DNA of 64,000 bases from assembly GCA_003551305.1 (NCBI GenBank), contig PUMJ01000050.1:12073-76072 (forward strand), read 5' to 3'. Below are positions 1-18,160 of the stretch, piece by piece. Source of the DNA: Candidatus Brocadiaceae bacterium (GTDB taxonomy: Bacteria > Planctomycetota > Brocadiia > SM23-32). Both the position numbers and the translations under genes were made by a program. The notes beneath the pieces were generated by a model. The model did not search any database, had not been told where the DNA came from, and saw nothing but the letters and a program-made list of their open reading frames with translations. Numbering within the stretch: the stretch's first letter is position 1; every line of letters begins with the position of its first letter.

Positions 1-452
1 GCCTGCTGGGCGGGCTGGCGGCGGGGTTCATGGTGCCCTCGCTCCACGTCGGCGCCGCCCCCTACCACACCTTCGAGGTACTGACGGGCATCTACCGGCT
101 GGACGGCCTCATCGCCTCGCTCATCGGGGCGCTGGGGGGCGGGCTGATGGTGGTGTTTTTCGCCATCCTCGGCGCCGTCGTCTTCCGCAAGGAGGCGATG
201 GGCTTCGGCGACGTGAAGCTGATGGCGATGATGGGCGCGTTTTTCGGATGGAAGTTCGTCGTGGTCGCCTTCTTCATCGCGCCCTTCGTCGGGCTGCTCT
301 ACGGGATACCCCTGCTGGTGCTGCGCGACGAGCACGTGATGCCCTACGGCCCGTTCCTCAGCATAGGCGCCGTGGTGACCATCATCTTCCGCAGCGAACT
401 GACCCTCTACCTCGAACCGCTGGAGCACCTGGCCGCGACGCTGCTGGGATGA
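1..452 (+). CDS. pilD: Type IV prepilin leader peptidase (A24 family), C-terminal part; 5' end lies outside the window
   Basis: The reading frame is open from position 1. The motif FGDVKLMAMMGAFFGW and multi-pass hydrophobic stretches are typical of PilD/A24 peptidases. The stop codon is at 450-452. Confidence 0.7.
   Translation, partial: LLGGLAAGFMVPSLHVGAAPYHTFEVLTGIYRLDGLIASLIGALGGGLMVVFFAILGAVVFRKEAMGFGDVKLMAMMGAFFGWKFVVVAFFIAPFVGLLYGIPLLVLRDEHVMPYGPFLSIGAVVTIIFRSELTLYLEPLEHLAATLLG
362..442 (+). repeat. Direct repeat copy 1 (81 bp), the native 3' end of pilD
   Basis: Matches 2497-2577 with 2 mismatches. Encodes ...IGAVVTIIFRSELTLYLEPLEHLAAT, then LLG and stop. Confidence 0.85.
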
Positions 453-544
453 GTTGAGGACGGAACGCTTAGGAATCAGGTTCTCAGACAATACGAGAGC
501 TCAGTAACGCCCTTGACGTAATGCCGCACCTATGGTAGTCTGCC

Positions 545-1516
545 TTGCGGACTCGCGGAAAGGAGGGGCACGTGAGCATAGCGCTTCAAGGCGAAAATGA
601 ACGTGACGGACCTGAACCGCTGTACGAAACTGATCTCGGAACGTGCTACGTTGGGGATTCAAGGGACATCCTACCTTATGTGCCTTCTGATTCCATCGAC
701 CTGCTGATCACTTCGCCTCCGTTCGCCCTGACACGGAAGAAGGAGTACGGCAACAAAGACTCGGATCAATACGTGGATTGGTTTCTGACCTTCGTGCCCG
801 AGATTCATCGCGTGCTGAAGCCGAGAGGCAGCTTTGTGCTCGACCTCGGGGGTGCCTATCTTCCCGGGGCTCCGGTTCGGACGATCTACCAGTTCGACCT
901 CTTGGTCAGACTCTGCAAAGATTACGAGTTTTACCTTGCCCAAGAGTTTTTCCACTACAATCCTTCCCGGCTGCCCTCACCGGCAGAATGGGTGAACATT
1001 CGCCGCATTCGAGTGAAGGATGCCGTCAACTTGGTCTGGTGGTTGTCCATTACGGAAAATCCCAAGGCGGACAACACCCGTGTGCTGAAACCGTATAGCG
1101 ACAGCATGGAGACTCTTCTGAAAAACGGCTACAAAACCAAGCGACGGCCCAGTGGCCACAAGATATCGGGGAACTTCGCAAGACGTAACGATGGTGCAAT
1201 TCCTCCGAATCTACTTGAATTACCCAATACACGCAGCAACACGCTGTATCTGCGTCGGTGTCGTGAACGAGGCCTGAAACCACATCCGGCGCGCTTCCCG
1301 GAGGAGTTTCCGGAGTTCTTCATAGATTTTCTGACAGAGCCCGGCGATACGGTCTTGGACATTTTTGCGGGGTCCAACACGACAGGATTCGTGGCCGAAC
1401 GAAAGAGCAGGCAATGGCTGGCCTTCGAGAAGAGTTTGGAGTACGCCAGGGCCAGCGCATTCAGATTTGAAACCCCCGGCGAACTCTTCCCGGACGTGAA
1501 AAATGCGTCAGCTTGA
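545..1516 (+). CDS. DNA methyltransferase, beta-class N4/N6 family (motif IV SPPF precedes motif I FAGSNTTG); probable N4-cytosine MTase
   Basis: Carries DLLITSPPFAL (motif IV) and VLDIFAGSNTTG (motif I) in the beta-class order. An in-frame GTG at 572 behind AAAGGAGGGG is an alternative start. The 3' end overlaps the next gene by 14 nt. Confidence 0.8.
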   Translation: MRTRGKEGHVSIALQGENERDGPEPLYETDLGTCYVGDSRDILPYVPSDSIDLLITSPPFALTRKKEYGNKDSDQYVDWFLTFVPEIHRVLKPRGSFVLDLGGAYLPGAPVRTIYQFDLLVRLCKDYEFYLAQEFFHYNPSRLPSPAEWVNIRRIRVKDAVNLVWWLSITENPKADNTRVLKPYSDSMETLLKNGYKTKRRPSGHKISGNFARRNDGAIPPNLLELPNTRSNTLYLRRCRERGLKPHPARFPEEFPEFFIDFLTEPGDTVLDIFAGSNTTGFVAERKSRQWLAFEKSLEYARASAFRFETPGELFPDVKNASA

Positions 1517-2495
1517 CAAAGAGGGCCTGCTTACACGGGTGCAGCGGGCACTGCGGGAGTGCGGGGCGTGTTTCGAACGGACCTCACCTCGCGGCGAGCA
1601 TCCTGCATACTTTGATCTCTACGAACCTGTTGGACTGAAACTGCGCGTCTACATCTGGAACATCACTCACGGTGGGGCCACGCGTCCTGCTGATGAATAC
1701 CGCATACAAGTTACAGGCGTGGGGAGCCTGCTGGCCAATGATCAGCATAAGACGCTCATCCTCGGCTGGCGCAACGGCTCAGGAATATTCGCCGCCTGGG
1801 ACCCGGTCCGTCACGCTGGGCCGGTGAGCAGTTCGCCCTCCATGCAGATCAAGGAGGAGACTCTCCAGGAGGCTGCCCTGCGGGGAGTATCGCTCTGCTA
1901 CCGGGGTGAGGGCGAGATTACGGTAGCCTTCACACCTTCGATGTTCCTTGCCTATGTTCAGCACCAATCAGGCCTGCATGTGGATGCGCATCCGCCCGAA
2001 TGGGTCCAGGAGGTTAACGAAGCCGTGACCCGAGCGTCGGAGTCGGCTTCGCCGCTTCCTATGCCGGCGGACAAGGCTGATCCGCGCGAGCGGACGGTTA
2101 CAGAGGTGGCGCGCATTGTCAGAGACAGCAGCTTCCGTTCCAGGGTTCTCGGGGCTTATGCCCACAGCTGTGCGGCCTGCGGGCTTCAACTGGACTTGGT
2201 TGAAGCCGCGCATATTGTGCCTGTCCGGCATGCTGAAAGCACGGACGAGACGCCCAATGGGCTGTGCCTGTGTGCTCTACACCACAAAGCGATGGATCAA
2301 GCACTTATCAGGATTGAGGTCGATTACCGGCTTTCCGTGAACCCGGACAGGCTGGAGGATCTGCGCGAGGCGAGAAGGATCAAAGGTCTCAAGGATTTCA
2401 CAGGTGCTTTGCGTGACATGATCAAGCTTCCGCCCGAGCCGAAACTCAGGCCCAATCCGGAGTACATCAAACTTCGCAACTCGCTCAAAACGTAA
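1503..2495 (+). CDS. HNH-motif endonuclease with an uncharacterised N-terminal domain; putative restriction endonuclease partner of the MTase
   Basis: C-terminal HNH signature SCAACG...AAHIVP...NGLCLCALHH. Translationally coupled to the MTase through a 14-nt overlap, and sits in the same low-GC segment. Confidence 0.65.
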   Translation: MRQLDKEGLLTRVQRALRECGACFERTSPRGEHPAYFDLYEPVGLKLRVYIWNITHGGATRPADEYRIQVTGVGSLLANDQHKTLILGWRNGSGIFAAWDPVRHAGPVSSSPSMQIKEETLQEAALRGVSLCYRGEGEITVAFTPSMFLAYVQHQSGLHVDAHPPEWVQEVNEAVTRASESASPLPMPADKADPRERTVTEVARIVRDSSFRSRVLGAYAHSCAACGLQLDLVEAAHIVPVRHAESTDETPNGLCLCALHHKAMDQALIRIEVDYRLSVNPDRLEDLREARRIKGLKDFTGALRDMIKLPPEPKLRPNPEYIKLRNSLKT

Positions 2496-2496
2496 A

Positions 2497-2577
2497 CATA
2501 GGCGCCGTGGTGACCATCATCTTCCGCAGCGAACTGACCCTTTACCTCGAACCGCTGGAGCACCTGGCGGCGACGCT
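2497..2577 (+). repeat. Direct repeat copy 2 (81 bp), a displaced or alternative pilD 3' end
   Basis: Identical to 362-442 except for 2 mismatches. Continues in-frame to a stop after the same number of codons (..ATLFA*). Confidence 0.85.
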
Positions 2578-2750
2578 ATTCGCGTGAGCGTCTGCCCGTT
2601 CCCGCCCTCCGCTCGGACTGACATGCAACGCTCCTCACGCAGCTCACCAGGGGGGAAAGGTCCTCAGCGGCTGCCGGTTGTTTGCTGAGGGTGCGAATTG
2701 AGGGTGGGGCGGCTGCCAACCACCATGATCACCTCGGGCACAGGGGGCGG

Positions 2751-2771
2751 CAAAAGCCCCCTTGCGGGGGC
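2751..2771 (-). terminator. Rho-independent terminator for the minus-strand ABC/ArsR operon
   Basis: On the minus strand, GCCCCC-GCAA-GGGGGC hairpin followed by TTTTG, about 80 nt downstream of the permease stop. Confidence 0.5.
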
Positions 2772-2853
2772 TTCCACAGCCGAGGCTTCGGCCGTGAGCT
2801 CAGCCGAACCGGGCGGCTGTGCCACGGTGGCCTCCTGGCGTCGGTCGGCCGCC

Positions 2854-3627
2854 CTACAGACCCCGGGAGCGCCACATGCGGTGGAAGAAACAGGCGCCCA
2901 GGAACATCACCACGGTGAATCCCACCAGGGCCACCAGCGCCACCCAGACCGGGAAGTAGGGCTCCTGCCCGAAACCCGTCCTGATGAGGTCCGCCGCGTA
3001 GGACAGGGGCGAAATGGGCGATATCCACTGCGCCCAACTCGGCATCTCCGCTATGGGCAGGAAGACGCCGCTGACGAACAGCAGCGGCAGGCGCACCAGG
3101 TTCGAAAGCAGCATGATGTTGGACGGGCTGCTGGCCGGCGGCGACGCCAGAAGCACCCCGAGCGTGGCGAAGCTGAGCGCCCCGAGCACGACGCCGCAGA
3201 TCAGAAGCGGCAGGCTCGTGATGACCGAGTCCGTAAGCGCCAGCCCCAGCACCACGGGCACCACCGAGAGGCACGCCCCGAAGAGCAGCCCGCTGGTGAT
3301 GTCGCCCAGCAGGATGGCGCGCAAAGACAGGGGCGAGGAGATGAGCCGCTCGTAGGTCCGGGCGTTCCGCTCCCACGGGGTCACCAGCGGCCCGACGGCG
3401 CTGGCGGTGAACCACAGCGCCATCGCCACCATGCCCGGCACGATGGCGTCCGCCGCGATGGGCCGGCCCATCAGGAAGGTGAGGAAAAAGAAAACGGGGA
3501 ACAGCACCCCGAAGATCAACACCGGGGGCTTCAGGTAGTAGAGCATCGAGTTCTTCTTGGCGATGACGTAGACGCCGTGGGCCTGCCGGCGCCAGGTCCG
3601 GATTCCTTCGCTCACGGTGTCACTCAT
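2854..3627 (-). CDS. ABC-2 family transporter permease
   Basis: Six hydrophobic helices and ABC-2 type permease architecture. Overlaps the upstream ATPase gene by 8 nt. Confidence 0.75.
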   Translation of the reverse strand: MSDTVSEGIRTWRRQAHGVYVIAKKNSMLYYLKPPVLIFGVLFPVFFFLTFLMGRPIAADAIVPGMVAMALWFTASAVGPLVTPWERNARTYERLISSPLSLRAILLGDITSGLLFGACLSVVPVVLGLALTDSVITSLPLLICGVVLGALSFATLGVLLASPPASSPSNIMLLSNLVRLPLLFVSGVFLPIAEMPSWAQWISPISPLSYAADLIRTGFGQEPYFPVWVALVALVGFTVVMFLGACFFHRMWRSRGL

Positions 3628-4564
3628 TGCGGTCCTCCTCGATCGGCTGTCCTGTCAGTTCCAGGAACACGTCTTCCAGGCTCGGCTTGCAGGTGGCTAT
3701 CTCCGCGATGTCAACTCCGCGGCGCTCGGCGAGCCTGACCACCTCCGTGGCGACCCGGCCGGGCTGCTCCGAGTAGAGGCGGAAGCCGCCGGCCCGGCTC
3801 AGGCGCTTCACCCCCGCCAGCGCGGCAAGCTCATCCTCCGGCGGGAGGCCGTCGGTGAAGCTGACCTGCACGTACTGGCTCGACTTCATCGCGTCGCGGA
3901 GCTGGTCCGGGGTGTCTATGGCGACGATGCGGCCCTTGTTGATGATGGCCACCCGGTCGCAGACCTCCTCGGCCTCGGCCATGTTGTGCGTGGTGAGGAA
4001 GACGGTCAGGCCCTCCCGGTTCATGTCGCGCACGATGTTGCGTATCAGGCGGGCGCTGTGCACGTCGAGGCCGCTGGTCGGCTCGTCCAGGAAGAGTATC
4101 TCCGGCCCGCTCACCAGGGCCGAGCAGAGCATCAGGCGCTGGCGCAGGCCCTTGGAGAGGGCGCGGGCTTTCTGCCCTTTGCGGTCGCCCAGGCCGAGAT
4201 TCTTGAGCAGGCGCTCGCCTTCCTCCTCCCGGCGGGCGCGCGGCACGCCGTGCAACTCCGCCATGAGCATCACGTTGCGCCAGACGCTCAGGTCCAGGTA
4301 AACGTTCGCCTCTTCCGGCACGATGCCCAGGTGTGCGCGGGCGTTGAGCGGGTCCCTGCGGATGTCGTGTCCCTGGATGGTCGCCGTGCCCCCGGTGGGG
4401 TCTATGACGCCCGTGAGCATGCGGACGGTCGTCGTCTTGCCCGCCCCGTTGGGGCCGAGGAAGCCGAAGACCTCGCCTTTGTTGACTTCGAACTCGACCC
4501 GGTCCACGGCGGTCAGTTCCCCGAACCGCCGCGTCAGGCCGCGGACCTCAATGCAGGAGGTCAT
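3620..4564 (-). CDS. ABC transporter ATP-binding protein
   Basis: Walker A GPNGAGKTT, signature LSKGLRQRL, Walker B LFLDEPTSGLD. Confidence 0.9.
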   Translation of the reverse strand: MTSCIEVRGLTRRFGELTAVDRVEFEVNKGEVFGFLGPNGAGKTTTVRMLTGVIDPTGGTATIQGHDIRRDPLNARAHLGIVPEEANVYLDLSVWRNVMLMAELHGVPRARREEEGERLLKNLGLGDRKGQKARALSKGLRQRLMLCSALVSGPEILFLDEPTSGLDVHSARLIRNIVRDMNREGLTVFLTTHNMAEAEEVCDRVAIINKGRIVAIDTPDQLRDAMKSSQYVQVSFTDGLPPEDELAALAGVKRLSRAGGFRLYSEQPGRVATEVVRLAERRGVDIAEIATCKPSLEDVFLELTGQPIEEDRNE

Positions 4565-5217
4565 GTCTGTTGTCTCTCCTTGTCTTTCTCAAAGATGAGC
4601 CACATGCCGAGCCCCGTGTCGGGGTCGTCTTCGGGCAGGGCCCCCTCGCCGACCACCTGGACGCGCTCCAGGCCGGCCTGGCGGGCCCAGCGGCGGAACG
4701 TCTCCGGCTTGCGGACCTCCTCGAAGGCGCGGACCGCCTCAGGACCTTTCTTGCGCACGCTCTGGCGGCGACGGCGGATGAACTCCCGCCGCGCCCACAG
4801 GGGATAGGTTTTGCCCAGCCCCCCGCCGAGCATGGCTTTGCCGCCGGGACGCAGCGCGCGGTGGACCTCTCGCACCCCGGCCGGCGGATCGTCCCAGAAG
4901 TAGATGGAGCCGCGGCTGACGACCAGGTCGGCGCAGCCGCGGGCGAGCGGAAGCGACTCCGCTCGCCCCACGACCGGCACCATTCGTCCCTGCAGGCCGC
5001 GCTCAGCGGCCGTCGCCAGCGCCCGCTGCAGGGCCTCTACGTCGGGGTCCAGCAGGACCAGAACGCCGTCTGTGCGCTCGGCCAGCGCGAAACCCAGCGG
5101 GCCTTCGCCGCAGCCAAGGTCAACCCAGACGCCCTGTTGCGGGCTGCACATCTGCATGACATCATGGACGACACACCGGTAGTAGTCCGGCAGGTCGTCG
5201 GCCTGTTGAGCCGGCAT
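4561..5217 (-). CDS. Class I SAM-dependent methyltransferase (small; possibly ArsM-like)
   Basis: Motif I VDLGCGEG, Rossmann-like MTase fold, several Cys residues before motif I. Its 3' end overlaps the ATPase start by 4 nt. Confidence 0.7.
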   Translation of the reverse strand: MPAQQADDLPDYYRCVVHDVMQMCSPQQGVWVDLGCGEGPLGFALAERTDGVLVLLDPDVEALQRALATAAERGLQGRMVPVVGRAESLPLARGCADLVVSRGSIYFWDDPPAGVREVHRALRPGGKAMLGGGLGKTYPLWARREFIRRRRQSVRKKGPEAVRAFEEVRKPETFRRWARQAGLERVQVVGEGALPEDDPDTGLGMWLIFEKDKERQQT

Positions 5218-5247: not shown

Positions 5248-5658
5248 TCACACGCAGGGGTGGTCCGCCCCGTCGCCGTGGCATTCCCGGACCTGCTCGG
5301 GGGAGCACTCGGCGGGCTTGCCCTCCAGCTTCTCGGGGTTCTCGCAGTCCCCGAGTATCTCGTCGGCCTCGTCACAGGTGGGCCGCTCCTCGCAGGCCAG
5401 GCATTCAGCCGGTGTGCAATCGGCGGCGTTTTCGACGCAGGGGTGGCCCTGAACGTCGCCGTGGCACTCCCGGATCTGCTCCGGCGTGCAGTCCTCCGGC
5501 TTGCCCTTCAGCTTGTCCGGCTGTTCACAGACGGCAGTTCCGACGCAGGGGTGGTCCTGAACGTCACCGTGGCACTCCCGGATCTGCTCCGGCGTGCAGT
5601 CCTGCGGCTTGCCCTTCAGCTTGTCCGGTTGCCGGCATCCTTCATGTCCGGTACACAT
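5248..5658 (-). CDS. Cys/His-rich tandem-repeat protein (3 units of ~36 aa, each C-x12-C-x7-C-H-G-D-x3-H-P-C); putative metal or metalloid binding
   Basis: Start MCTGHEG is preceded by GGAGGAGG. The repeats are visible at both DNA and protein level. The 5' end overlaps the arsR stop. Confidence 0.6.
   Translation of the reverse strand: MCTGHEGCRQPDKLKGKPQDCTPEQIRECHGDVQDHPCVGTAVCEQPDKLKGKPEDCTPEQIRECHGDVQGHPCVENAADCTPAECLACEERPTCDEADEILGDCENPEKLEGKPAECSPEQVRECHGDGADHPCV
5433..5640 (-). repeat. Intragenic ~108-bp tandem repeat (2 near-identical units, plus a third diverged unit at ~5280-5400)
   Basis: Unit 5433-5540 versus 5541-5640: >90% identical, in-frame, 36 codons each. Confidence 0.8.
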
Positions 5659-5954
5659 GACTCCTCCTCCTTTTCGGCCGGGGGCGTGAGCACGTGGGTG
5701 ATCACGCGCCGGCACTCCTCAAGTCTCTCGCGGTTCACACGATAGTGCGCGAAATTGCCCTGTTTTTCGCGTTCAACCAGTCCGGCGTCGCGCAGTATGC
5801 GCAGGTGCTGGCTGACGGCGGCGGACGTCATGTCCAGCCGGGCCGCCAGCGCCCCGACGCACAGGACGCGTTCCTCCAGCAACTGCACGATCTGAACGCG
5901 TGCGGCGACGCCGAAAAGCTTGAACAGCCGCGCGGCCTCTTCCGGGTCAATCAT
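5616..5954 (-). CDS. ArsR/SmtB family metal(loid)-responsive transcriptional repressor
   Basis: Winged-HTH ArsR signature ...LCVGALAARL...AAVSQHLRILRDAGLV. Strong RBS AAAGGAGGTG before the ATG. Confidence 0.85.
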   Translation of the reverse strand: MIDPEEAARLFKLFGVAARVQIVQLLEERVLCVGALAARLDMTSAAVSQHLRILRDAGLVEREKQGNFAHYRVNRERLEECRRVITHVLTPPAEKEEESCVPDMKDAGNRTS

Positions 5955-6563: not shown

Positions 6564-8495
6564 ATGAACATTGCGCTCACATTGCCTGACGGCAGCGTCA
6601 TCAAGAGACCCGCCGGCACCACCCCGGCCCAGGTGGCCGCCTCCATCGGCCCCGGGCTGGCGCGCGACGCGCTGGCCGCCCGCGTGGACGGCGCGGCCGT
6701 GGACCTGGACGTGCCCCTGGAGCAGGACGCCGAACTGGCCATCATCACCATAGACAGCCCCGAGGGGCTGGAACTCATGCGCCACAGCGTCAGCCACATT
6801 ATGGCCTGCGCGGTGGGCCGCCTGTTCGACGGCGTCAAGTTCGGCATCGGCCCGGCCATCGAGAACGGTTTCTACTACGATTTCGACGTGGACGGCGCCA
6901 TCAGCGCGGACGACCTGGAGCGCATCGAGGAGGAGATGGCGCGCATCGTCGCCGAGGAGATCCCCTTCGAGCGCGTGGAGATGAACATCGAGGAAGCCCG
7001 CGAGCTGATGCGCCGCAAAGACCAGGTCTATAAGCTCGAGCTGCTGGAGGAGATCGAAGACCACGTCCTCTCCCTCTACCGCACCGAGGGCTTCATTGAC
7101 CTGTGCCGCGGCCCGCACGTGCCGCAGGCGGGCAAGGTCGGCGCCTTCCGGCTGCTGAACGTGGCCGGCGCCTACTGGCGCGGCGATTCCGCCCGGCCCC
7201 AGATGCAGCGCATCTACGGCACAGCCTTCCCGACCGAGAAAGAACTGGAGGAGCACCTGGAGCGCCTGCGCAAGGCCGAGGAGCGCGACCACCGCCGCCT
7301 GGGCCAGGAGCTGGACCTGTTCAGCTTCGATGAGGAGATAGGGCAGGGGCTCGTGCTGTGGCACCCGCGGGGGGAGCGCCTTCGCCAGGTCATCGAGGAC
7401 TACTGGCGCCGGCTCCACGCCGAGCGCGGCTACGAGTTCGTGCGCACCCCGCACATCGCCTCCGAGAAAGTCTTCCGGCGCAGCGGCCACATACCGAAGT
7501 ACGAGGACATGATGTACGCGCCGCTGGTCATTGACGAGGAGCGCTACCGGGTCAAGCCGATGAACTGCCCGGCGCACATCAAGATATTCCAGACCCACAC
7601 CCGCTCCTACCGCGACCTGCCGATCCGCTACGCCGAGCTGGGCACCGTCTACCGCTACGAGCTGAGCGGCGCGCTGCACGGGACGGTGCGGGTGCGGGGC
7701 TTCACCCAGGACGACGCGCACATCTTCTGCACCCCCGAGCAGCTTGTCTCCGAGGTCGAGGACCTGCTGGAACTGGTCGAGGAGATGATGGGGGCCTTCG
7801 GCTACGAATACTCCGTCTATCTGGCCACCCGGCCGGAAGTCTCGCTCGAGACGGCCGGCGATGAGGAGTGGGAACGGGCCACCGAGTCCCTGCGCCGGGC
7901 GCTGGAGGAGAAGGGCGTCGCCTACGAGGTGGACGAGGGCGGCGGCGCCTTCTACGCGCCCAAGATAGACTGCAAGCTGCACGACGCCCTGGGCCGGGAG
8001 TGGCAGGGGCCGACCATCCAGGTGGACCTGAACCTGCCCAAGCGCTTCGAGGTGGTTTACGTCGGGGAGGACGGCCGGGAGCACGAGTGCATCATCGTGC
8101 ACCGCGCCATCCTGGGATCGCTGGAGCGCTTCGTCGGCGGGCTCATCGAGCACTTCGGCGGCTGGTTCCCCGTGTGGCTGGCGCCGGAGCAGGTGCGGGT
8201 GCTGTCCATCACCGACGAGCACGCCGATTACGCCCGCCGGGTGCAGCAGCGGCTGCGGGCGGTCGGGGTGCGCGCCGCCGTGGACGCACGCAACGAGACC
8301 ATGGGCTACAAGGTCCGCGCCGGCACCGTGGACAAGGTGCCCTACCTGCTGATCGTCGGCGACCGCGAGGTGGAGAACGGCACCGTCAGCGTCCGCAGCC
8401 ACGAGCAGGGGGACGAAGGGCCGGCGCCGCTGGACGAGTTCCTCGACCGGATAGGCCGGGAGATAGCGGAAAAGCGCCTGCCGGACGACTTCTGA
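6564..8495 (+). CDS. thrS: Threonine--tRNA ligase
   Basis: N-terminal TGS domain (MNIALTLPDGS...), second additional domain, class II catalytic core and anticodon-binding domain; 643 aa. Confidence 0.95.
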   Translation: MNIALTLPDGSVIKRPAGTTPAQVAASIGPGLARDALAARVDGAAVDLDVPLEQDAELAIITIDSPEGLELMRHSVSHIMACAVGRLFDGVKFGIGPAIENGFYYDFDVDGAISADDLERIEEEMARIVAEEIPFERVEMNIEEARELMRRKDQVYKLELLEEIEDHVLSLYRTEGFIDLCRGPHVPQAGKVGAFRLLNVAGAYWRGDSARPQMQRIYGTAFPTEKELEEHLERLRKAEERDHRRLGQELDLFSFDEEIGQGLVLWHPRGERLRQVIEDYWRRLHAERGYEFVRTPHIASEKVFRRSGHIPKYEDMMYAPLVIDEERYRVKPMNCPAHIKIFQTHTRSYRDLPIRYAELGTVYRYELSGALHGTVRVRGFTQDDAHIFCTPEQLVSEVEDLLELVEEMMGAFGYEYSVYLATRPEVSLETAGDEEWERATESLRRALEEKGVAYEVDEGGGAFYAPKIDCKLHDALGREWQGPTIQVDLNLPKRFEVVYVGEDGREHECIIVHRAILGSLERFVGGLIEHFGGWFPVWLAPEQVRVLSITDEHADYARRVQQRLRAVGVRAAVDARNETMGYKVRAGTVDKVPYLLIVGDREVENGTVSVRSHEQGDEGPAPLDEFLDRIGREIAEKRLPDDF

Positions 8496-8584
8496 GCCCG
8501 GGTTCTCGGCCCGGTAGAACGCGGCTCGCACTGTAGCGCCGCCTATCCGCCGTACAGCGAACGCCCACCTGCCATCTGAAAGCC

Positions 8585-9847
8585 ATGGACTCGCTCGAAC
8601 GCAGCAACGTCATCAAGTGCACCGGCGCCCACGTGCTTTTCGGGTTGGGGGGCGGGCTCACCAGCGCCTTCACCGTGCTGCCGCTGATGCTGAAGGCGCT
8701 GGGGGCGAGCGACCTGGTGCTGGGCGTTGCGTTCAGCCTGGCGACGGCGGGCTGGCTCCTGCTGCAGCCGCTGGCCGTGCTCACCTTCGGGCGGCGCAAG
8801 CGCGGCAAGGGCTTCGTGGTGCCCTGGAGCCTGGCGTTCTCGGTGCCCTGGATAGTGGCTATCGGCGCCGTGGTGGCGCTGCTGGGGCGGGAGCGCCCCA
8901 CCCTGGGCATCGGGCTGGTGCTGGGCCTGCTGGCGGTGCGGGTCGTCGGGGAGGGGATGATATTCCCATTCTGGGACGACTGGTTCGCGCACCTGTTCAG
9001 TCGCCGGTTCCGCGGGCGCGCCCTCGGGCTCGTCTCCGGGTTCATGGGGCTGGGCATCAGCGTCGGGGCGGTGCTGGCGGGCCGGGTGCAGGGGGCGCTG
9101 GAGTTCCCGCTCAGCTACGCCGTGCTGTTCTGGGCGGCGGCGGGCCTGCTGGTGGTCGCCTTCGGGGGCATCTGGTGGATGCGCGATCCGGCCTCGCTCG
9201 CCCGGGACGCCACACAGCACACCTTCGGCGAGTTGCTGAGCAAGTTCGGGCAGTCGTTGCGCGAGGTCAACTTCCGCAACTACCTCATCGGCCGGATCGT
9301 CCTGACGCTCGGCGGCGGCGTGGTGGGCTTCTACGCCGCGCACTTCGGCAGCCCGGCTGGGGGCGACGTCGCACCGGCCACCGTTATCACGCTGGGCATG
9401 TTCATCACGCTGCCGCAGGCCGCGTTCGCCTATCTGCTGGGGCGTCTGGGGGACAGGTCCGGCCACAAGGCCAGCGTCGTGGTGGGCGCCTGCGCGCTGG
9501 CGGCTTCTATCGCCGTGGCATGGCTGGGGCGCGGGACGCTGGCCTGCGGGGTGACCTTCGCCCTGCTGGGGCTCTCGACGGCGGCCGGCTGGGGGCCGCA
9601 CCTGAACATGCTGTATGAGACCTGCCCCCACGACAGCCGCGTGGCCCACATCACGCTCAGCAACCTGGTGCTGAGCCCGTTTCTGCTGGCCGTGCCCGTG
9701 GCGACCGGCTGGCTGCGGGAACTGGCCGGGGTGCACGCCTTCGGGCTGGCGCTTGTGCCCGCCGTCGTCAGCGTCCTGTGGCTTTCCTTCCGCGTCAAGG
9801 AGCCGCGTTCGATAGAGGTGGTGGAGATGGATGAAGGGGCTCGATGA
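8585..9847 (+). CDS. MFS transporter
   Basis: About 12 predicted TM helices and MFS-like organisation. Confidence 0.6.
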   Translation: MDSLERSNVIKCTGAHVLFGLGGGLTSAFTVLPLMLKALGASDLVLGVAFSLATAGWLLLQPLAVLTFGRRKRGKGFVVPWSLAFSVPWIVAIGAVVALLGRERPTLGIGLVLGLLAVRVVGEGMIFPFWDDWFAHLFSRRFRGRALGLVSGFMGLGISVGAVLAGRVQGALEFPLSYAVLFWAAAGLLVVAFGGIWWMRDPASLARDATQHTFGELLSKFGQSLREVNFRNYLIGRIVLTLGGGVVGFYAAHFGSPAGGDVAPATVITLGMFITLPQAAFAYLLGRLGDRSGHKASVVVGACALAASIAVAWLGRGTLACGVTFALLGLSTAAGWGPHLNMLYETCPHDSRVAHITLSNLVLSPFLLAVPVATGWLRELAGVHAFGLALVPAVVSVLWLSFRVKEPRSIEVVEMDEGAR

Positions 9848-9970
9848 GCGGCGCATGGCCACCGCCGGCGCGCCATTGGCCCCGCGGGTTGCCGGTCGTT
9901 CTTGCCGCCGTCCATCTCAGCCATGGACAGGCAACCGGCACAAGGCGCCCGCCGGCCTGCGGCGCCCCGC

Positions 9971-11110
9971 TCAGTCCCGCACGTAGCGCTGGCCGGAGAG
10001 TTGTCGCAGCAGCCCGCGGATCTCAAGCGTCAGCAGGGTGCTGGCGACGATGGAGGTCGGCTGTCCGGTGGCCTCGATGACCTCGTTGATGTGCACGGGC
10101 GTGGGCCCGACCGCTTCGAGGACTTCCTTCTCGCGCTCGTTCAGGGCCAGCACGCGGGGGTCCCGCAAAGGCGGGGCGGGCTGGTCACCTTCCGGGGCGG
10201 GCAGGTCGAGCGGTTCGCTCAAGGGGCCGAGCTCCTCGACGACGTCGCGGGCGTCTTCCACCAGAACGGCGCCGTCCCGGATGAGCTGATGGCAGCCGCG
10301 GCTGCCGGGGCGGTCCACGTCGCCGGGCACGGCGAAGACCTGCCGGCCCTGCTCGCCGGCGTGGCGGGCGGTGATGAGGCTGCCGCTGCGCCGGCCGGCC
10401 TCCACGACCACGACGCCGAGGGACAGGCCGCTGATAATGCGGTTGCGGGGAGGGAAATTCTCGGCGCGGGGCGGCGCATGCATGGGCAGCTCGCTGATGA
10501 CGGCGCCGCTGTCGGCCACTTCGAGCGCCAGTTCGAGCCGGCGACGCGGCAGGTCGCGGGCCAGCCCCTGGCCGAGCACGGCCACGGTGCGCCCGCCGGC
10601 CCGGAGAGCACCCCGGTGGGCCTCCGAATCCACGCCGCGGGCCAGCCCGCTGACCACGGTGAAGCCCATGGAGGCCAGGTCGGCGGCCATGCGCGCGGCC
10701 CGGCGGCGACCGTACTGGGAGCAGCGCCGCGAGCCCACCACGGCGATGGCCAGCCGGTCCTGCTCGGCGAGCCGGCCGCGCACCCGCAGCAGCACGGGGG
10801 CGGCCGAGTCCAGGTGCCGCAGCAGCGCCGGGTAGTCCTCGCTAAAGCACGGCACAAGGCGCACCTGTCGCCTTTCCATCAGGTCCAGTTCCCGCTCGAC
10901 GTCGGCGGGGGACGGCCCCCTGCGGACCGCTTCGGCCAGGCGCCGCCCCACGCCGGGGACGCCGGTGAGGGCGTCTGGCGAAGCCGCCAGCGCCTCCCGC
11001 GCCGAGCCGAAGTGCTCGACGAGCGAGTGTATGGTGCCGCTGCCGATGCCGTCACAGAGCGACAGCCTCAGCAGGGCGAGGGTCTCTTCGCGGTGCTCGC
11101 CTGTTGCCAC
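9971..11110 (-). CDS. dprA: DNA processing protein DprA (Smf)
   Basis: Rossmann-like DprA core with VVSGLARGVDSEAHRGAL, plus a C-terminal winged-helix. Confidence 0.9.
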   Translation of the reverse strand: MATGEHREETLALLRLSLCDGIGSGTIHSLVEHFGSAREALAASPDALTGVPGVGRRLAEAVRRGPSPADVERELDLMERRQVRLVPCFSEDYPALLRHLDSAAPVLLRVRGRLAEQDRLAIAVVGSRRCSQYGRRRAARMAADLASMGFTVVSGLARGVDSEAHRGALRAGGRTVAVLGQGLARDLPRRRLELALEVADSGAVISELPMHAPPRAENFPPRNRIISGLSLGVVVVEAGRRSGSLITARHAGEQGRQVFAVPGDVDRPGSRGCHQLIRDGAVLVEDARDVVEELGPLSEPLDLPAPEGDQPAPPLRDPRVLALNEREKEVLEAVGPTPVHINEVIEATGQPTSIVASTLLTLEIRGLLRQLSGQRYVRD

Positions 11111-11131: not shown

Positions 11132-12024
11132 TCAGTAGTTTTCCAGATATTCGTCCGGTTCCATCCCGTCCATCAGCTCGCGCCAGAACGAGGGGGACGG
11201 TCGGTTGACCTCGACCATGACCTCTTCGGCGTCCTCGAGGAACTCGTGGAGGGCGCGGGTGAGGGGCAGTTCGAAGCCGCGTCGTTCGGCCTCGGCCAGG
11301 TAGTAGGCGAGTTGCCCGGACTTGACGCCCACATCCGTCGCCCTGCCCTGGGGTATCAGGTGGGCGAGGTCGGCCAGTTCCCGGCGCCATCCGTCCTCGC
11401 CGCCGACGCCGCGGATGACGGCCTCCAGCTCTGCGCCGGCCCGCACGCCCAGGGCCAGCGCCTCCAGCAGGGCGGCGCGGCGCAGGCCCATGGCAAGCTG
11501 GTTTACGCCTTTGACGACCTGGCCGCAGCCGCTGGGCCCGCAGTAGACGATGTGGTCGGGCTCGCCGAGCACCTCCAGCAGGGGGCGGTGGCGCTCGAAC
11601 ACGGCCCGCTCGCCGCCGGCGAACATGCGCAACGTGCCGGCCCTGGCCCCGCCGGCCCCCCCGCTGACGGGCACGTCCAGCAACGTGGCGTCGCGCTCGG
11701 CGAACTCGTTGGCCAGCCGGCGCGTCCGGGGTGGCGCCACTGTCCCCAGGTCTATGAATACCTGGTGCGGCCGGGCGTTGGGTACAAGCTCCGCCTCGGC
11801 CACCTCGACGAAGGTCCGGGAATGGGGCAGGGAGGTCAGCACGGGGTCGGCCCGGCAGGCGACATCGGCGGCGGATTCGGCGGGCGCCGCGCCCGCCTCC
11901 ACCGCGACCTCCAGCGCCTCGGGCGCGATGTCGTACGCGATCAGGGGGTAACCTGCGGCGAGGAGGTTGCGCGCCATGGGCCCGCCCATGGACCCGAGTC
12001 CGATAAAGCCGGTTTCCGAGGACA
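11132..12024 (-). CDS. NAD(P)-dependent oxidoreductase, 3-hydroxyisobutyrate dehydrogenase / 6PGDH-like family
   Basis: N-terminal GFIGLGSMGGPMARNL dinucleotide-binding motif. Start taken at MSSETGF (12024), not the upstream extension. Lies 21 nt upstream of dprA on the same strand. Confidence 0.8.
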
Positions 12025-12235
12025 TGTCGGGTTCTCCGATCAGTGAGTAGGTGCGGTTTGCCCGAGCGGGGCCGTGCGGCTCCAGTATACGAGCCGGCGG
12101 CAGGCTTTGCACCCGCCACGGGGAGCGCCGGGTACTTGACACCGACGCCTCGTGATAATAGGGTAAATGGTACGTGGCGGGTCCATTAGGAGCGCGCCAT
12201 GAGGTTCTCGAAGCTTACCGGAGGTTGAGCGGGCC

Positions 12236-13966
12236 ATGATTGCTCTGTCAGATCGTCGCTGGCCGTTTGCTGCCGTTGCTCTGCTGGTGGTGGCCCTGGC
12301 GGTTGCCGTGCTACCTACCGGTTGCGGCAGACCGGATGATCCGGAGTTTTACGTCCAGCAGTTGGCCAGCGAGCGGGACGAGACGCGGCGACGCGCCATT
12401 GAAGAGCTGACGCGGATGCAGGAGCGCGCCATACCCGCCATCGAGGAAGGGCTGCAAAGCGACGATCCCCGGGTGCGTTCCGCCTGCCTGCAGGTGCTGG
12501 GCAGGACGCGCCGGATAAGCTCCCTGCTGACGGCCGGCGAGATGCTGGACGACCCCGACGAGGACGTTCGCCTCCAGGCCATCGAGACAGTGGCCGAACT
12601 GTCCGCCGTCTGGACCGAGAGGAGCACTGAACTGCTGGGCAAGGCGCTGCGCCAGGACAACCCCGAGGTGATCCAGAGAGCCGCCCAGGGTCTGAGGGAA
12701 CTGCACGAAGCCGAGGCCATCGAGGTACTGCGTCAGGAGTATGAACAAGGGGATGGGTTGTCCGCCATCTATGCCGCCCGCCACCTCTACGAGGAAGAAC
12801 CCGCGCCGGAGATCGCGCGCTTCCTGCTGGAATCGGTGCGCGCGGGCGCAGATGATGAAATCGAGGCCGCCCGCTCCGCCCTGAAGGAGCTGCAAGACCG
12901 CATCGTGCCGGAACTGGTCGAGTTCGCCGGCCGGCACGGCGGCCGCCCGGAGGAGTTGCTGATCGAGACCCGCGACGACCTGATAGCCGAACTGAACCGA
13001 ATACTGGATGCCCGACGGGCGCAGGACATCCTGGCCGCCCTCGGCGTGATAGCCGATGAGCCGAGCGTCGAGAAGCTGATCACCGACATGCAGGACACGC
13101 GCCTGCAGAGTTCCTGGCGCGTGGCGGCGGCCGACGCCCTGGGCACGGCGGCCGCCTCCGACCGCAGCACCCGCCCGCTACGGCGCCGCATCACCGAAGC
13201 GCTCAACCAGACGATGGACAGGGGCAGGGAAGACAACCGCGTCCGGATAGCGGCGGCCATCTCCCTGTGCCGGCTGCGCCAGGACTCCGGTGTCGAATAC
13301 CTGCTGACACAGCTCGACCGGTTCCAGGACATCGTCGGCGGCGAGCAGAGGCTCAGCGGTTCGGAACTGGACGCCCTGAAAGAACTGCGCATCCGCGCCC
13401 AGGAAGCCCTGACGGCCTCCGGCGAGTTCGTGGTCGAGCCCCTGCGCCAGAGGCTCACGGCGGATGAAGAACCCGGCCCGATCATCATCTGGGCGGCGGT
13501 CAAGACCTTCGGCGAGCTGAGGGTCGATGACACGGTGCCGCTTATGCGCCGGTTCATCCTGGACCGGCGCGAGCCCACCGAACAGCGTCCGCTCATAGAG
13601 GTCCGGGAAGACGGGCAACTGAGCGTGGAAGTGGTCCTGCCCAACTGGCAGGAACCCGACGAACAGGAAGTCCGGGCTTTGATCGACGAGCTGGAGCCGT
13701 TCAGGTATCCGGAATACGTGCGATGGACGGTGGCCAACGCGCTGCGGCAGATAGGCGGGCAGGAAGCCGAGGACATCCTGGCCGAGGCCGCCGGCGAGAA
13801 GCAGGACTTCGTGGACCGGCTGCGCGCCAACCAGGACCTGCGGGACTACCACATGCGCGCGCCCGTCATCGAAGGGCTTATTGCCCGCCACGAGGATGTG
13901 CTCTTCTACGTGAGGCTGGCGATGGAGCAGCTCGGCATGCCGCTGGTGGCTCAGACGGGGTCGTAA
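12236..13966 (+). CDS. HEAT/PBS-lyase repeat lipoprotein
   Basis: Lipoprotein-type signal (..LPTGCG) followed by many HEAT-like repeats (DP.VR..A...LG). Confidence 0.7.
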
Positions 13967-17730: not shown

Positions 17731-18160
17731 TGTGGCTCCAATGCTTTGAGTGAGAGGTCAACCCGCTCCCTGCGGGCCTATCCTCATTATATGAGCCCGC
17801 CGCCCGGAACGCCACCCCGTCCGTCCCGACGGACTCGTGTTGTCGGGGCGCCGCCGCCCCAACGGGACGCCGCTCCGAAAGAGCGCCATATACCAGCCCC
17901 GGGCGCAGCCCGGGGTCCCCCGAACGCCCCCGAAACCCGCGCCCTGAATGGGCGCCACAGGGGTTGCAGGAGGAATGCGTGGCATCCGCCTGCCCTGTCT
18001 GCGTGCAAGGCGCAGGCCGGCGCAAACCGGCAGTCGGAAAAAGCGGCGGCAAGCGGCGCGCTCACAGAGCGCGCCGCACTCCAGGGGACGCGGCCCGGAC
18101 GATGCAGGGCTGTGCGACATGCACGAACGGTGATCACTGGAGTCCGGACCGGCGTTTCGT

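Follow-up and report, generated by a model that had tools for sequence, protein, structure and literature searches.

Restriction–modification (R-M) systems that have inserted with a long duplication of their target were reported by Nobusato et al. 2000 (ref. 37 in Furuta, Abe & Kobayashi 2010, NAR 38:2428, PMC2853133). As the survey by Furuta et al. outlines this class, the insert holds both an R and an M gene, is shorter than 20 kb, is flanked by a repeat of more than 30 bp and contains no other mobile genes (PMC2853133). The same outline states that the repeats often span the stop codon, so that the target gene survives, that orphan methylases insert likewise and that most cases come from naturally competent species, and it leaves the mechanism open (PMC2853133). 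The class has been documented by comparative genomics only, and how R-M systems move without a recombinase of their own is still unresolved. Displacement of gene 3′ (C-terminal) ends by homology-facilitated illegitimate recombination was proposed for the effector–immunity arrays of Rhs and type VI secretion system (T6SS) loci (Kirchberger et al. 2017, PMC5361080), and transformation-triggered duplications have been shown experimentally in pneumococcus (PMC3784515). Here we analyze a 64-kb stretch of contig PUMJ01000050.1 (hereafter, the window) from a high-GC planctomycete that is related to metagenome-assembled genomes labeled Brocadiia. In the window, a low-GC Type II R-M cassette lies between two copies of the 3′ end of pilD, the prepilin peptidase gene. 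Our analyses lead us to favor, with reasonable though not high confidence, the view that this cassette was acquired and was inserted behind pilD with a long target duplication through recombination anchored in pilD.

A repeat search revealed a 92-nt direct repeat on the plus strand, with copy 1 at positions 362 to 453 and copy 2 at positions 2497 to 2588. The copies are identical at 85 of 92 nt (92%), with mismatches at repeat positions 46, 73, 82, 83, 85, 87, and 88. The first 81 nt (362 to 442 versus 2497 to 2577) form a core in which 79/81 nt are identical, the two mismatches both being synonymous and both in third codon positions. The remaining 11-nt tail contains five differences and six common nucleotides, and both copies close with TGAG. 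Local alignment of the two cassette flanks gave a score of 75, compared to a maximum of 12 for shuffled flanks. In the pilD frame both copies read EPLEHLAAT, followed by LLG in copy 1 or LFA in copy 2, and each reaches a TGA stop at the same codon. Copy 1 ends in EPLEHLAATLLG and is the actual terminus of the pilD open reading frame (ORF), its diverged tail (443 to 453) encoding LLG and the stop. Copy 2, which would end in EPLEHLAATLFA (ATLFA, then stop), lies within no ORF and is an untranslated, displaced pilD 3′ end that starts 1 nt past the TAA stop codon (2493 to 2495) of the R gene. A preliminary description of this DNA had proposed 81-bp direct repeats with two mismatches at 362 to 442 and 2497 to 2577, both reaching an in-frame stop after the same number of codons; the repeat search and alignment bear out the former, and the sequence and ORF list the latter. 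That description had also considered that the repeat might be a dispersed element, but the window holds only two copies, even with 16 mismatches allowed.

The distribution of the differences between the copies is informative. Both copies are host-like in codon usage, with G or C at 23 of 26 third positions (counted by eye), which indicates that the core is sequence of the host or of a close relative and was not imported from a low-GC source. Five of the seven mismatches are clustered inside 7 nt of the 3′ tail (P ∼4e-4 under a uniform distribution), a pattern better matched by recombination that joined two different pilD ends at 442/443 than by uniform decay of a fresh duplication. The tail of copy 1, CTG CTG GGA TGA, can be compared with the PilD end of the related locus L002, CTG CTG GGC TGA, and most orthologs in the clade end in G before the stop. 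The tail of copy 1 hence looks like a genuine clade-type pilD end, which suggests that it may have been supplied by a donor. It passes straight into a low-GC leader, whereas copy 2 is continuous with high-GC native downstream DNA.

The insert itself (454 to 2496) spans 2,043 nt, or 2,054 nt with the tail included. Between the repeat copies there are only the leader, a Type II DNA methyltransferase gene resembling that of M.PvuII (M; 572 to 1516, plus strand; PF01555, N6_N4_Mtase, E 3.7e-35) and an overlapping gene for a candidate restriction endonuclease with MTaX1 and HNH_2 domains (R; 1503 to 2495, plus strand; PF20296, E 1.4e-28, and PF13391, E 1.1e-10). These Pfam domains uphold the preliminary assignment of the insert's entire gene content to a DNA methyltransferase and an HNH endonuclease. 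The GC content of the insert is 56.6% (M, 54.0%; R, 59.2%) compared to 68.1% for the window; thus, the low GC that had been noted earlier is real, although the initial figure of 50 to 55% was slightly too low. The codon-usage comparison proposed at that stage gives the same contrast, as the G+C content at third codon positions (GC3) is 0.63 for M and 0.66 for R versus 0.91 to 0.93 in host genes. M and R are the sole genuine low-GC3 genes within the 64 kb, and all other 2-kb bins of the window have a GC fraction of at least 0.65. The compositional edges are sharp, with low GC starting right at the tail and leader.

M aligns with M.PvuII (Protein Data Bank 1BOO) over 288 residues (13 to 300) with ∼60% identity (E 1.8e-112), carries a TSPPF motif of the N4-cytosine type and the sequence FAGSNTTG, and matches the PADLOC model MTase_II (E 2e-127). 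These features point to an N4-cytosine methyltransferase with a predicted specificity for CAGCTG. The M and R genes overlap by 14 nt and both are full length. R is 330 aa long, equal to its homologs, and matches the PADLOC model for HNH Type II restriction enzymes; a structure match was obtained for its HNH part only (TagI, 6GHS, E 2.8e-4). Since its gene is in an operon with the methylase and its N-terminal domain is MTaX1, R is presumed to cut unmodified sites. The leader (454 to 571, plus strand) contains a putative promoter and ribosome-binding site: TTGACG (513 to 518), a 17-nt spacer, TAGTCT (536 to 541), and AGGAGG (561 to 566) ahead of the GTG start at 572. A TTGAC-N17-TAnnCT/AAGGAGG block upstream of M is common to the three closest cassettes, those of the window and of loci L162 and L164, and its conservation indicates that the cassette brings its own expression signals. 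Outside this block, the leader showed no significant likeness to the 290-nt spacer of L164.

The cassette belongs to a large family. More than 7,900 proteins match M below E 1e-60, typically with 65 to 70% identity, across Nitrospirota, Chloroflexota, Pseudomonadota, and others, and two small plasmids carry the cassette family; a phage search returned partial HNH-domain matches only. M precedes R in every homologous locus retrieved, and the two are adjacent except in L173, where a gene of the PLD family lies between them. Family members also occur in integrase or defense-island surroundings; the more distant ones lie next to an SMC-like ATPase or within an island that also encodes an integrase and an SNF2 helicase, and the member in L169 adjoins a tyrosine integrase. 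None of the R homologs P0005, P0006, P0023, and P0039 is in a pilD context.

To survey the window for mobility genes, ∼46 proteins across it were scanned against Pfam. No integrase or transposase was found among them, the 64 kb contain no tRNA and, near the islet, no relevant Rfam element, and there is no inverted repeat at the cassette ends. The Pfam and tRNA scans thus agree with the preliminary report that integrase, transposase, and tRNA are lacking. An insertion sequence, transposon, or miniature inverted-repeat transposable element was considered and rejected: terminal inverted repeats and a transposase domain are missing, and the duplication is 81 nt rather than 2 to 14 bp. The scanned set has an ordinary chromosomal character, with ThrRS, DprA, HflX, UvrC, sulfatases, and transporters among its members. 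DprA is full length (9971 to 11110, minus strand; domains DNA_processg_A, DprA_WH, and DprA_N); apart from DprA and PilD, no other pilus or com genes were detected among the scanned proteins. The presence of DprA and PilD is compatible with natural transformation but is no proof of it.

The recognition sequence predicted for the cassette is almost absent from the surrounding DNA. CAGCTG occurs once in the window, at 2165 to 2170 within the R gene, compared to 27.4 ± 5.1 occurrences expected from dinucleotide-preserving shuffles and 23.6 under a maximal-order Markov model. In 11 clade loci (PilD at least 58% identical; 88 kb) there are 3 occurrences where 40.7 are expected, while 73 other high-GC loci contain 186 versus 351 expected, a ratio of 0.53. 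This scarcity lends indirect support to the predicted specificity and speaks for real restriction pressure, and its extent across the relatives points to a clade that has long been under CAGCTG-specific restriction. Taken with the host-unlike codon composition of the cassette, this long avoidance suggests repeated loss and reacquisition, in the clade, of cassettes with the same specificity. Other words are scarce as well. CTAG is absent from the window against 70 expected (Markov model) and occurs 9 times versus 104 expected in clade loci L002, L003, L082, L084, L162, and L164, the ratio in other high-GC loci being 0.43; ATCGAT (0 versus 5.5) and GTCGAC (2 versus 15.6) are also depleted in the window. 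These depletions may stem from further restriction specificities or from repair biases.

Comparison with relatives places the cassette in a clade in which the site behind pilD is variably occupied. The window PilD is 71% identical to the PilD proteins of L002, L003, and L164. A single pilD end with no such cassette was seen in at least seven clade loci, the downstream genes of which differ from those of the window. L164 (GCA_964510315.1), in which PilD and HflX are each 71% identical to their window counterparts, carries the same cassette family directly behind pilD (M 75% and R 48% identical). This locus shows that the pilD–M–R arrangement exists in the clade and represents a plausible donor type; L164 as the donor itself was rejected as too divergent, given the 48% identity of R. 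The L164 cassette has ∼57% GC in a ∼67% GC genome, and 9 nt separate its R stop from that of a convergent radical S-adenosylmethionine (radical-SAM) gene. The third close cassette, in L162, is behind a DUF2207 gene, and the low-GC3 contrast is evident in both L162 and L164. No integrase was found in 13 kb of L164, and no flanking repeats were found at the cassettes of L162, L164, L166, L169, L172, and L173. The preliminary description had reasoned that insertion would be contradicted if related genomes all carried both genes here with native GC; instead, the seven or more loci mentioned above lack the cassette, and in L164, where it is present, its GC is again nonnative. A second low-GC stretch of L164 (0.51 to 0.54), at 2000 to 4000 upstream of pilD, contains a gene of the PDDEXK_3 nuclease family (2897 to 3274) and 142-nt direct repeats at 3500 to 3641 and 3678 to 3819 that are 92% identical and given as 178 nt apart.

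Two further relatives have other genes in the corresponding place. L002 contains orthologous pilD and radical-SAM genes (63% identity) with another lower-GC gene between them; this 571-aa ORF (1715 to 3430, minus strand), which has no Pfam or PADLOC match, occupies the slot that holds the R-M pair in L164. In L084, the region from pilD to the radical-SAM gene (7650 to 10412) contains a hicB-like antitoxin ORF and a possible hicA-like remnant, both read by eye, and a DNA methylase (HTH_17 and N6_N4_Mtase) with a native GC3 of 0.89. Directly after the methylase stop codon, the 3′ end of the radical-SAM gene recurs as a displaced copy of 85 nt, ∼75% identical (z ∼10.7), which still encodes GKCFHCFTPIPSA before a stop. 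L084 and the window have the same architecture of gene end, cargo, cargo stop, and displaced gene end, with a different target gene and different cargo.

From these data we infer the following course of events. The segment from 443/454 to 2496 would be a horizontally acquired, self-contained Type II R-M cassette with its own promoter. It would have entered at the very end of pilD without an integrase or transposase, leaving the 81-nt duplication, such that copy 1 preserves an intact pilD and copy 2 is the displaced resident end on native downstream DNA. The incoming DNA, probably taken up by natural transformation, would have come from a relative in which the cassette was already in place behind pilD. 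On the left side, it would have paired through pilD 3′ homology, with a crossover at or before position 442. On the right side, the R stop would have been joined illegitimately to resident position 362, 81 nt further upstream. The net event would be homology-facilitated illegitimate recombination, that is, a 3′-end displacement. Recombination between pilD alleles during transformation had been offered in the preliminary description and is close to the mechanism that we prefer. Once established, the M-then-R operon would methylate and restrict CAGCTG and serve as a defense and addiction module, and the 81-nt repeats would allow RecA-dependent excision, amplification, or retransfer.

Several observations weigh against this reconstruction. 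Searches of genome, metagenome, and protein collections with the PilD fragment yielded no close relative with an empty site, as the PilD proteins nearest to that of the window are at most 71% identical. With the closest PilD anywhere at ∼71% identity, no empty site could be identified at strain level, and since the downstream genes of the distant relatives differ, the single-copy state of the target is reconstructed rather than seen; tblastn around the relatives' pilD revealed no conserved downstream synteny. L164 and L162 lack repeats, and so a long duplication is no constant feature of insertion by this cassette family. The likeness of the two tails (6/11 nt) is not significant alone (P ∼0.06), which leaves some room for a target duplication at staggered breaks with an insert that chanced to supply a stop codon. 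The contig is metagenome-assembled, and independent support from a unitig covers the right junction only. Finally, clade-wide avoidance of CAGCTG is awkward beside the unameliorated GC3 of the cassette, unless cassettes turn over.

The duplication could also have arisen in another way. Breaks staggered by 81 nt, at 361/362 and 442/443, might have been filled in after a linear R-M fragment was joined to them, in which case the tail of copy 1 would be the foreign left end of the fragment. A mechanism of this kind is sketched in the survey's discussion of the long-target-duplication class (PMC2853133), and it is in line with the sharp 5′ edge of the repeat, with the near-perfect 81-nt core and its host-like codons and with the onset of low GC right at the tail and leader; the 6/11 similarity of the tails is likewise compatible with chance. 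The coincidence that it requires is that both copies stop at exactly the same codon, and the tail of copy 1 matches the L002 PilD end closely, with G as the last residue in most orthologs. A donor with a pilD ending in CTGCTGGGATGA ahead of the cassette leader would contradict it. We regard such staggered breaks as an unlikely source of the duplication. Somewhat less credible still is a Campbell-type integration, whereby a circle with one copy of the pilD 3′ end plus M and R recombined through RecA with the resident pilD end. A single crossover would indeed yield the repeat–cargo–repeat order, in which copy 1 bears the tail of the element and copy 2 the native one, and 81 nt of homology is above the minimal length for RecA. 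In its treatment of the class, the same survey describes a hypothetical "virus-like" cycle, due to Kobayashi, in which such repeats serve for excision and amplification (PMC2853133), and transformation-triggered duplications by alternative pairing of repeats are documented (PMC3784515). But neither a circular form nor a second repeat-flanked occupied genome was found, the donor would have to be near-identical across 81 nt yet different in the tail, and natural transformation brings in linear single-stranded DNA.

The classical signature of site-specific integration, direct repeats that re-encode a gene 3′ end, is present at this locus, and an integrase-mediated event at the pilD end, with the repeats as attL and attR of a decayed island or of a cis-mobilizable element, would explain why the same cassette family is behind pilD in a second genome, L164; the L169 member beside a tyrosine integrase is also in its favor. 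We nevertheless judge it improbable. Neither the 64-kb window nor the 13 kb of L164 contains an integrase. An att-like repeat is missing from L164, the islet measures just 2 kb, and the repeat is an 81-nt near-identity with host codon usage and no short conserved core. Moreover, L084 shows this architecture again with another target gene and other cargo, which speaks against one single att specificity. We depart from the preliminary reading of the islet as a site-specific element with its own (attP-like) copy of the gene end; nothing points to it, given the host-like codon usage, the 2-kb size and the six sister cassettes without repeats. It is very improbable that the R-M pair has been in place since the common ancestor with L164, with the repeat a later local duplication or rearrangement and no horizontal transfer. 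The pilD–M–R order common to the window and L164, an M identity (75%) near that of PilD and HflX (71%), and the clade-wide avoidance of CAGCTG, which implies a long association, would all agree with such ancestry. Against this, the GC3 of 0.63 to 0.66 versus ∼0.9 is far from equilibrium, as seen in three genomes, and the cassette is missing behind pilD in at least seven clade loci; two extra events would also be needed to put a pilD end exactly after the R stop. We rejected the 75% M identity as a sign of vertical codivergence with the host, since M is already 65 to 70% identical across unrelated phyla. The least credible possibility, which we consider remote, is an assembly artifact in which the contig was misthreaded through the 81-nt repeat in a mixed population. 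The contig is of metagenomic origin and the cassette differs in GC, and a 1.7-kb Logan unitig (run SRR490150) that is 100% identical to window positions 861 to 2526 breaks off 30 nt into the repeat. This same unitig, however, comes from an independent assembly of reads and matches the window exactly where the R stop meets the repeat, showing that this junction is real. In exact-sequence look-ups, R was recovered from this unitig alone, and no record matched M or the ABC-2 permease. Any placement of the cassette would still need pilD-end sequence on both sides of it, and the copies differ at two core positions and in the tail, so assemblers can separate them.

A broader possibility, which we consider doubtful, is that insertion here targets gene ends as such: addiction cassettes without an integrase (R-M systems, lone methylases, and toxin–antitoxin pairs) would land preferentially at the convergent pilD/radical-SAM pair of this clade, brought in by a common mechanism that resupplies the stop codon and leaves the cargo stop flush with the displaced end. 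This proposal rests on two or three loci only. If it were true, a cassette flanked by copies of a conserved gene end would be a self-transferable unit among transformable relatives, and its place behind the competence-pilus gene pilD might link restriction to DNA uptake.

The DNA around the cassette is native in composition. On the left, the 3′ part of pilD (3 to 452, plus strand; ORF 30 to 452; Peptidase_A24, PF01478, E 1.4e-11; GC3 0.93) extends beyond the window start. On the right, high-GC intergenic DNA (2589 to 2853; GC 0.68 to 0.72) leads from the displaced pilD end to a convergent operon, the nearest gene of which encodes an ABC-2 type transporter permease (2854 to 3627, minus strand; PF01061, E 1.4e-20; GC3 0.93). 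Within this intergenic stretch, a hairpin at ∼2747 to 2773 (AAGCCCCC-TTGC-GGGGGCTT), followed by TTTT on the minus strand, was read from the sequence and probably serves the ABC operon as its terminator. It was absent from the output of a consensus promoter and terminator scan, which gave nothing useful at the cassette edges. Farther downstream, a 155-aa Cys/His-rich protein (5248 to 5715, minus strand) contains three tandem motifs of ∼30 aa (PDKLKGKPxDCTPEQIRECHGDxxxHPCV) and may be metal binding; its gene overlaps or adjoins an ORF for a putative ArsR-type regulator (5616 to 5954) and is beside a SAM methyltransferase gene (4561 to 5217; Pfam). An Rfam match to the Acido-Lenti-1 small RNA (17871 to 17915, minus strand; 37.3 bits versus a threshold of 37) is immediately upstream of the HflX GTPase coding region. 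A 518-nt permuted transfer-messenger RNA (tmRNA) called by ARAGORN at 11813 to 12330 (plus strand) is probably false, as there is no Rfam tmRNA match and it overlaps a dehydrogenase ORF (11132 to 12142).

The pilD locus extends the record of R-M systems that move without a recombinase by a clean case in a distant phylum, with readable joints at 361/362 and 442/443, and the pattern of differences between its repeat copies points to recombination between two pilD ends and not to a simple staggered cut. Among the relatives, pilD is occupied a second time, and the neighboring gene has a methylase insertion of parallel structure. The cassette pairs an M.PvuII-type methylase with an HNH nuclease, and it is still compositionally foreign in a little-studied clade from which CAGCTG has been nearly eliminated. 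These findings leave current ideas standing: the locus is a useful case that can be tested, not a new kind of element.

Among known systems, integrative islands and cis-mobilizable elements at gene 3′ ends resemble the islet in that flanking direct repeats restore the 3′ end of the target. They differ from it in that the window contains no integrase, the insert is 2 kb, the 81-nt repeat is host-like, and the sister cassettes have no att-like repeats. Closer in form is the displacement seen in Rhs and T6SS arrays, in which a module likewise anchors on the conserved 3′ part of an upstream gene and pushes the resident end downstream as an orphan, again with no integrase and with natural transformation invoked. 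In the islet, by contrast, the displaced end belongs to a housekeeping gene and is no polymorphic toxin tip; an R-M pair forms the cargo, and there is one displaced end and no array. With respect to the cargo, TagI- and ScoMcrA-type HNH nucleases are modification-dependent enzymes that use SRA or SBD reader domains. Their C-terminal HNH_2 domain is homologous to that of R (6GHS; NF045808), but R has an N-terminal MTaX1 domain and its gene is in an operon with a methylase. M agrees with M.PvuII over 288 residues, including an SPPF N4-cytosine motif, and CAGCTG, as would suit the PvuII system, is nearly purged from the host DNA. The PvuII system also comprises a small PD-(D/E)XK nuclease, R.PvuII, and a controller (C) protein. 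Neither of these was seen in the window cassette, in which the nuclease is a 330-aa MTaX1–HNH protein and M is followed by R with a 14-nt overlap under one predicted promoter.

The closest correspondence is with the long-target-duplication class of R-M insertions. Among the taxa named in the 2010 survey's account of the class there is no planctomycete (PMC2853133). The pilD islet departs from that class in further respects: the empty sister site by which the class is defined is here reconstructed, a diverged 11-nt tail ends the repeat and points to a joint of two pilD alleles, and one convergent pilD/radical-SAM locus has been occupied repeatedly in the clade. In its other properties the islet would fit as a member of the published class. 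R and M are both inside an insert of 2,043 nt with a 79/81-nt repeat and no mobility genes in the window; this cargo is just R and M, the repeat extends across the pilD stop and leaves pilD intact, competence genes are present, and the methylase of L084 provides a parallel to the orphan methylases that insert in the same manner.

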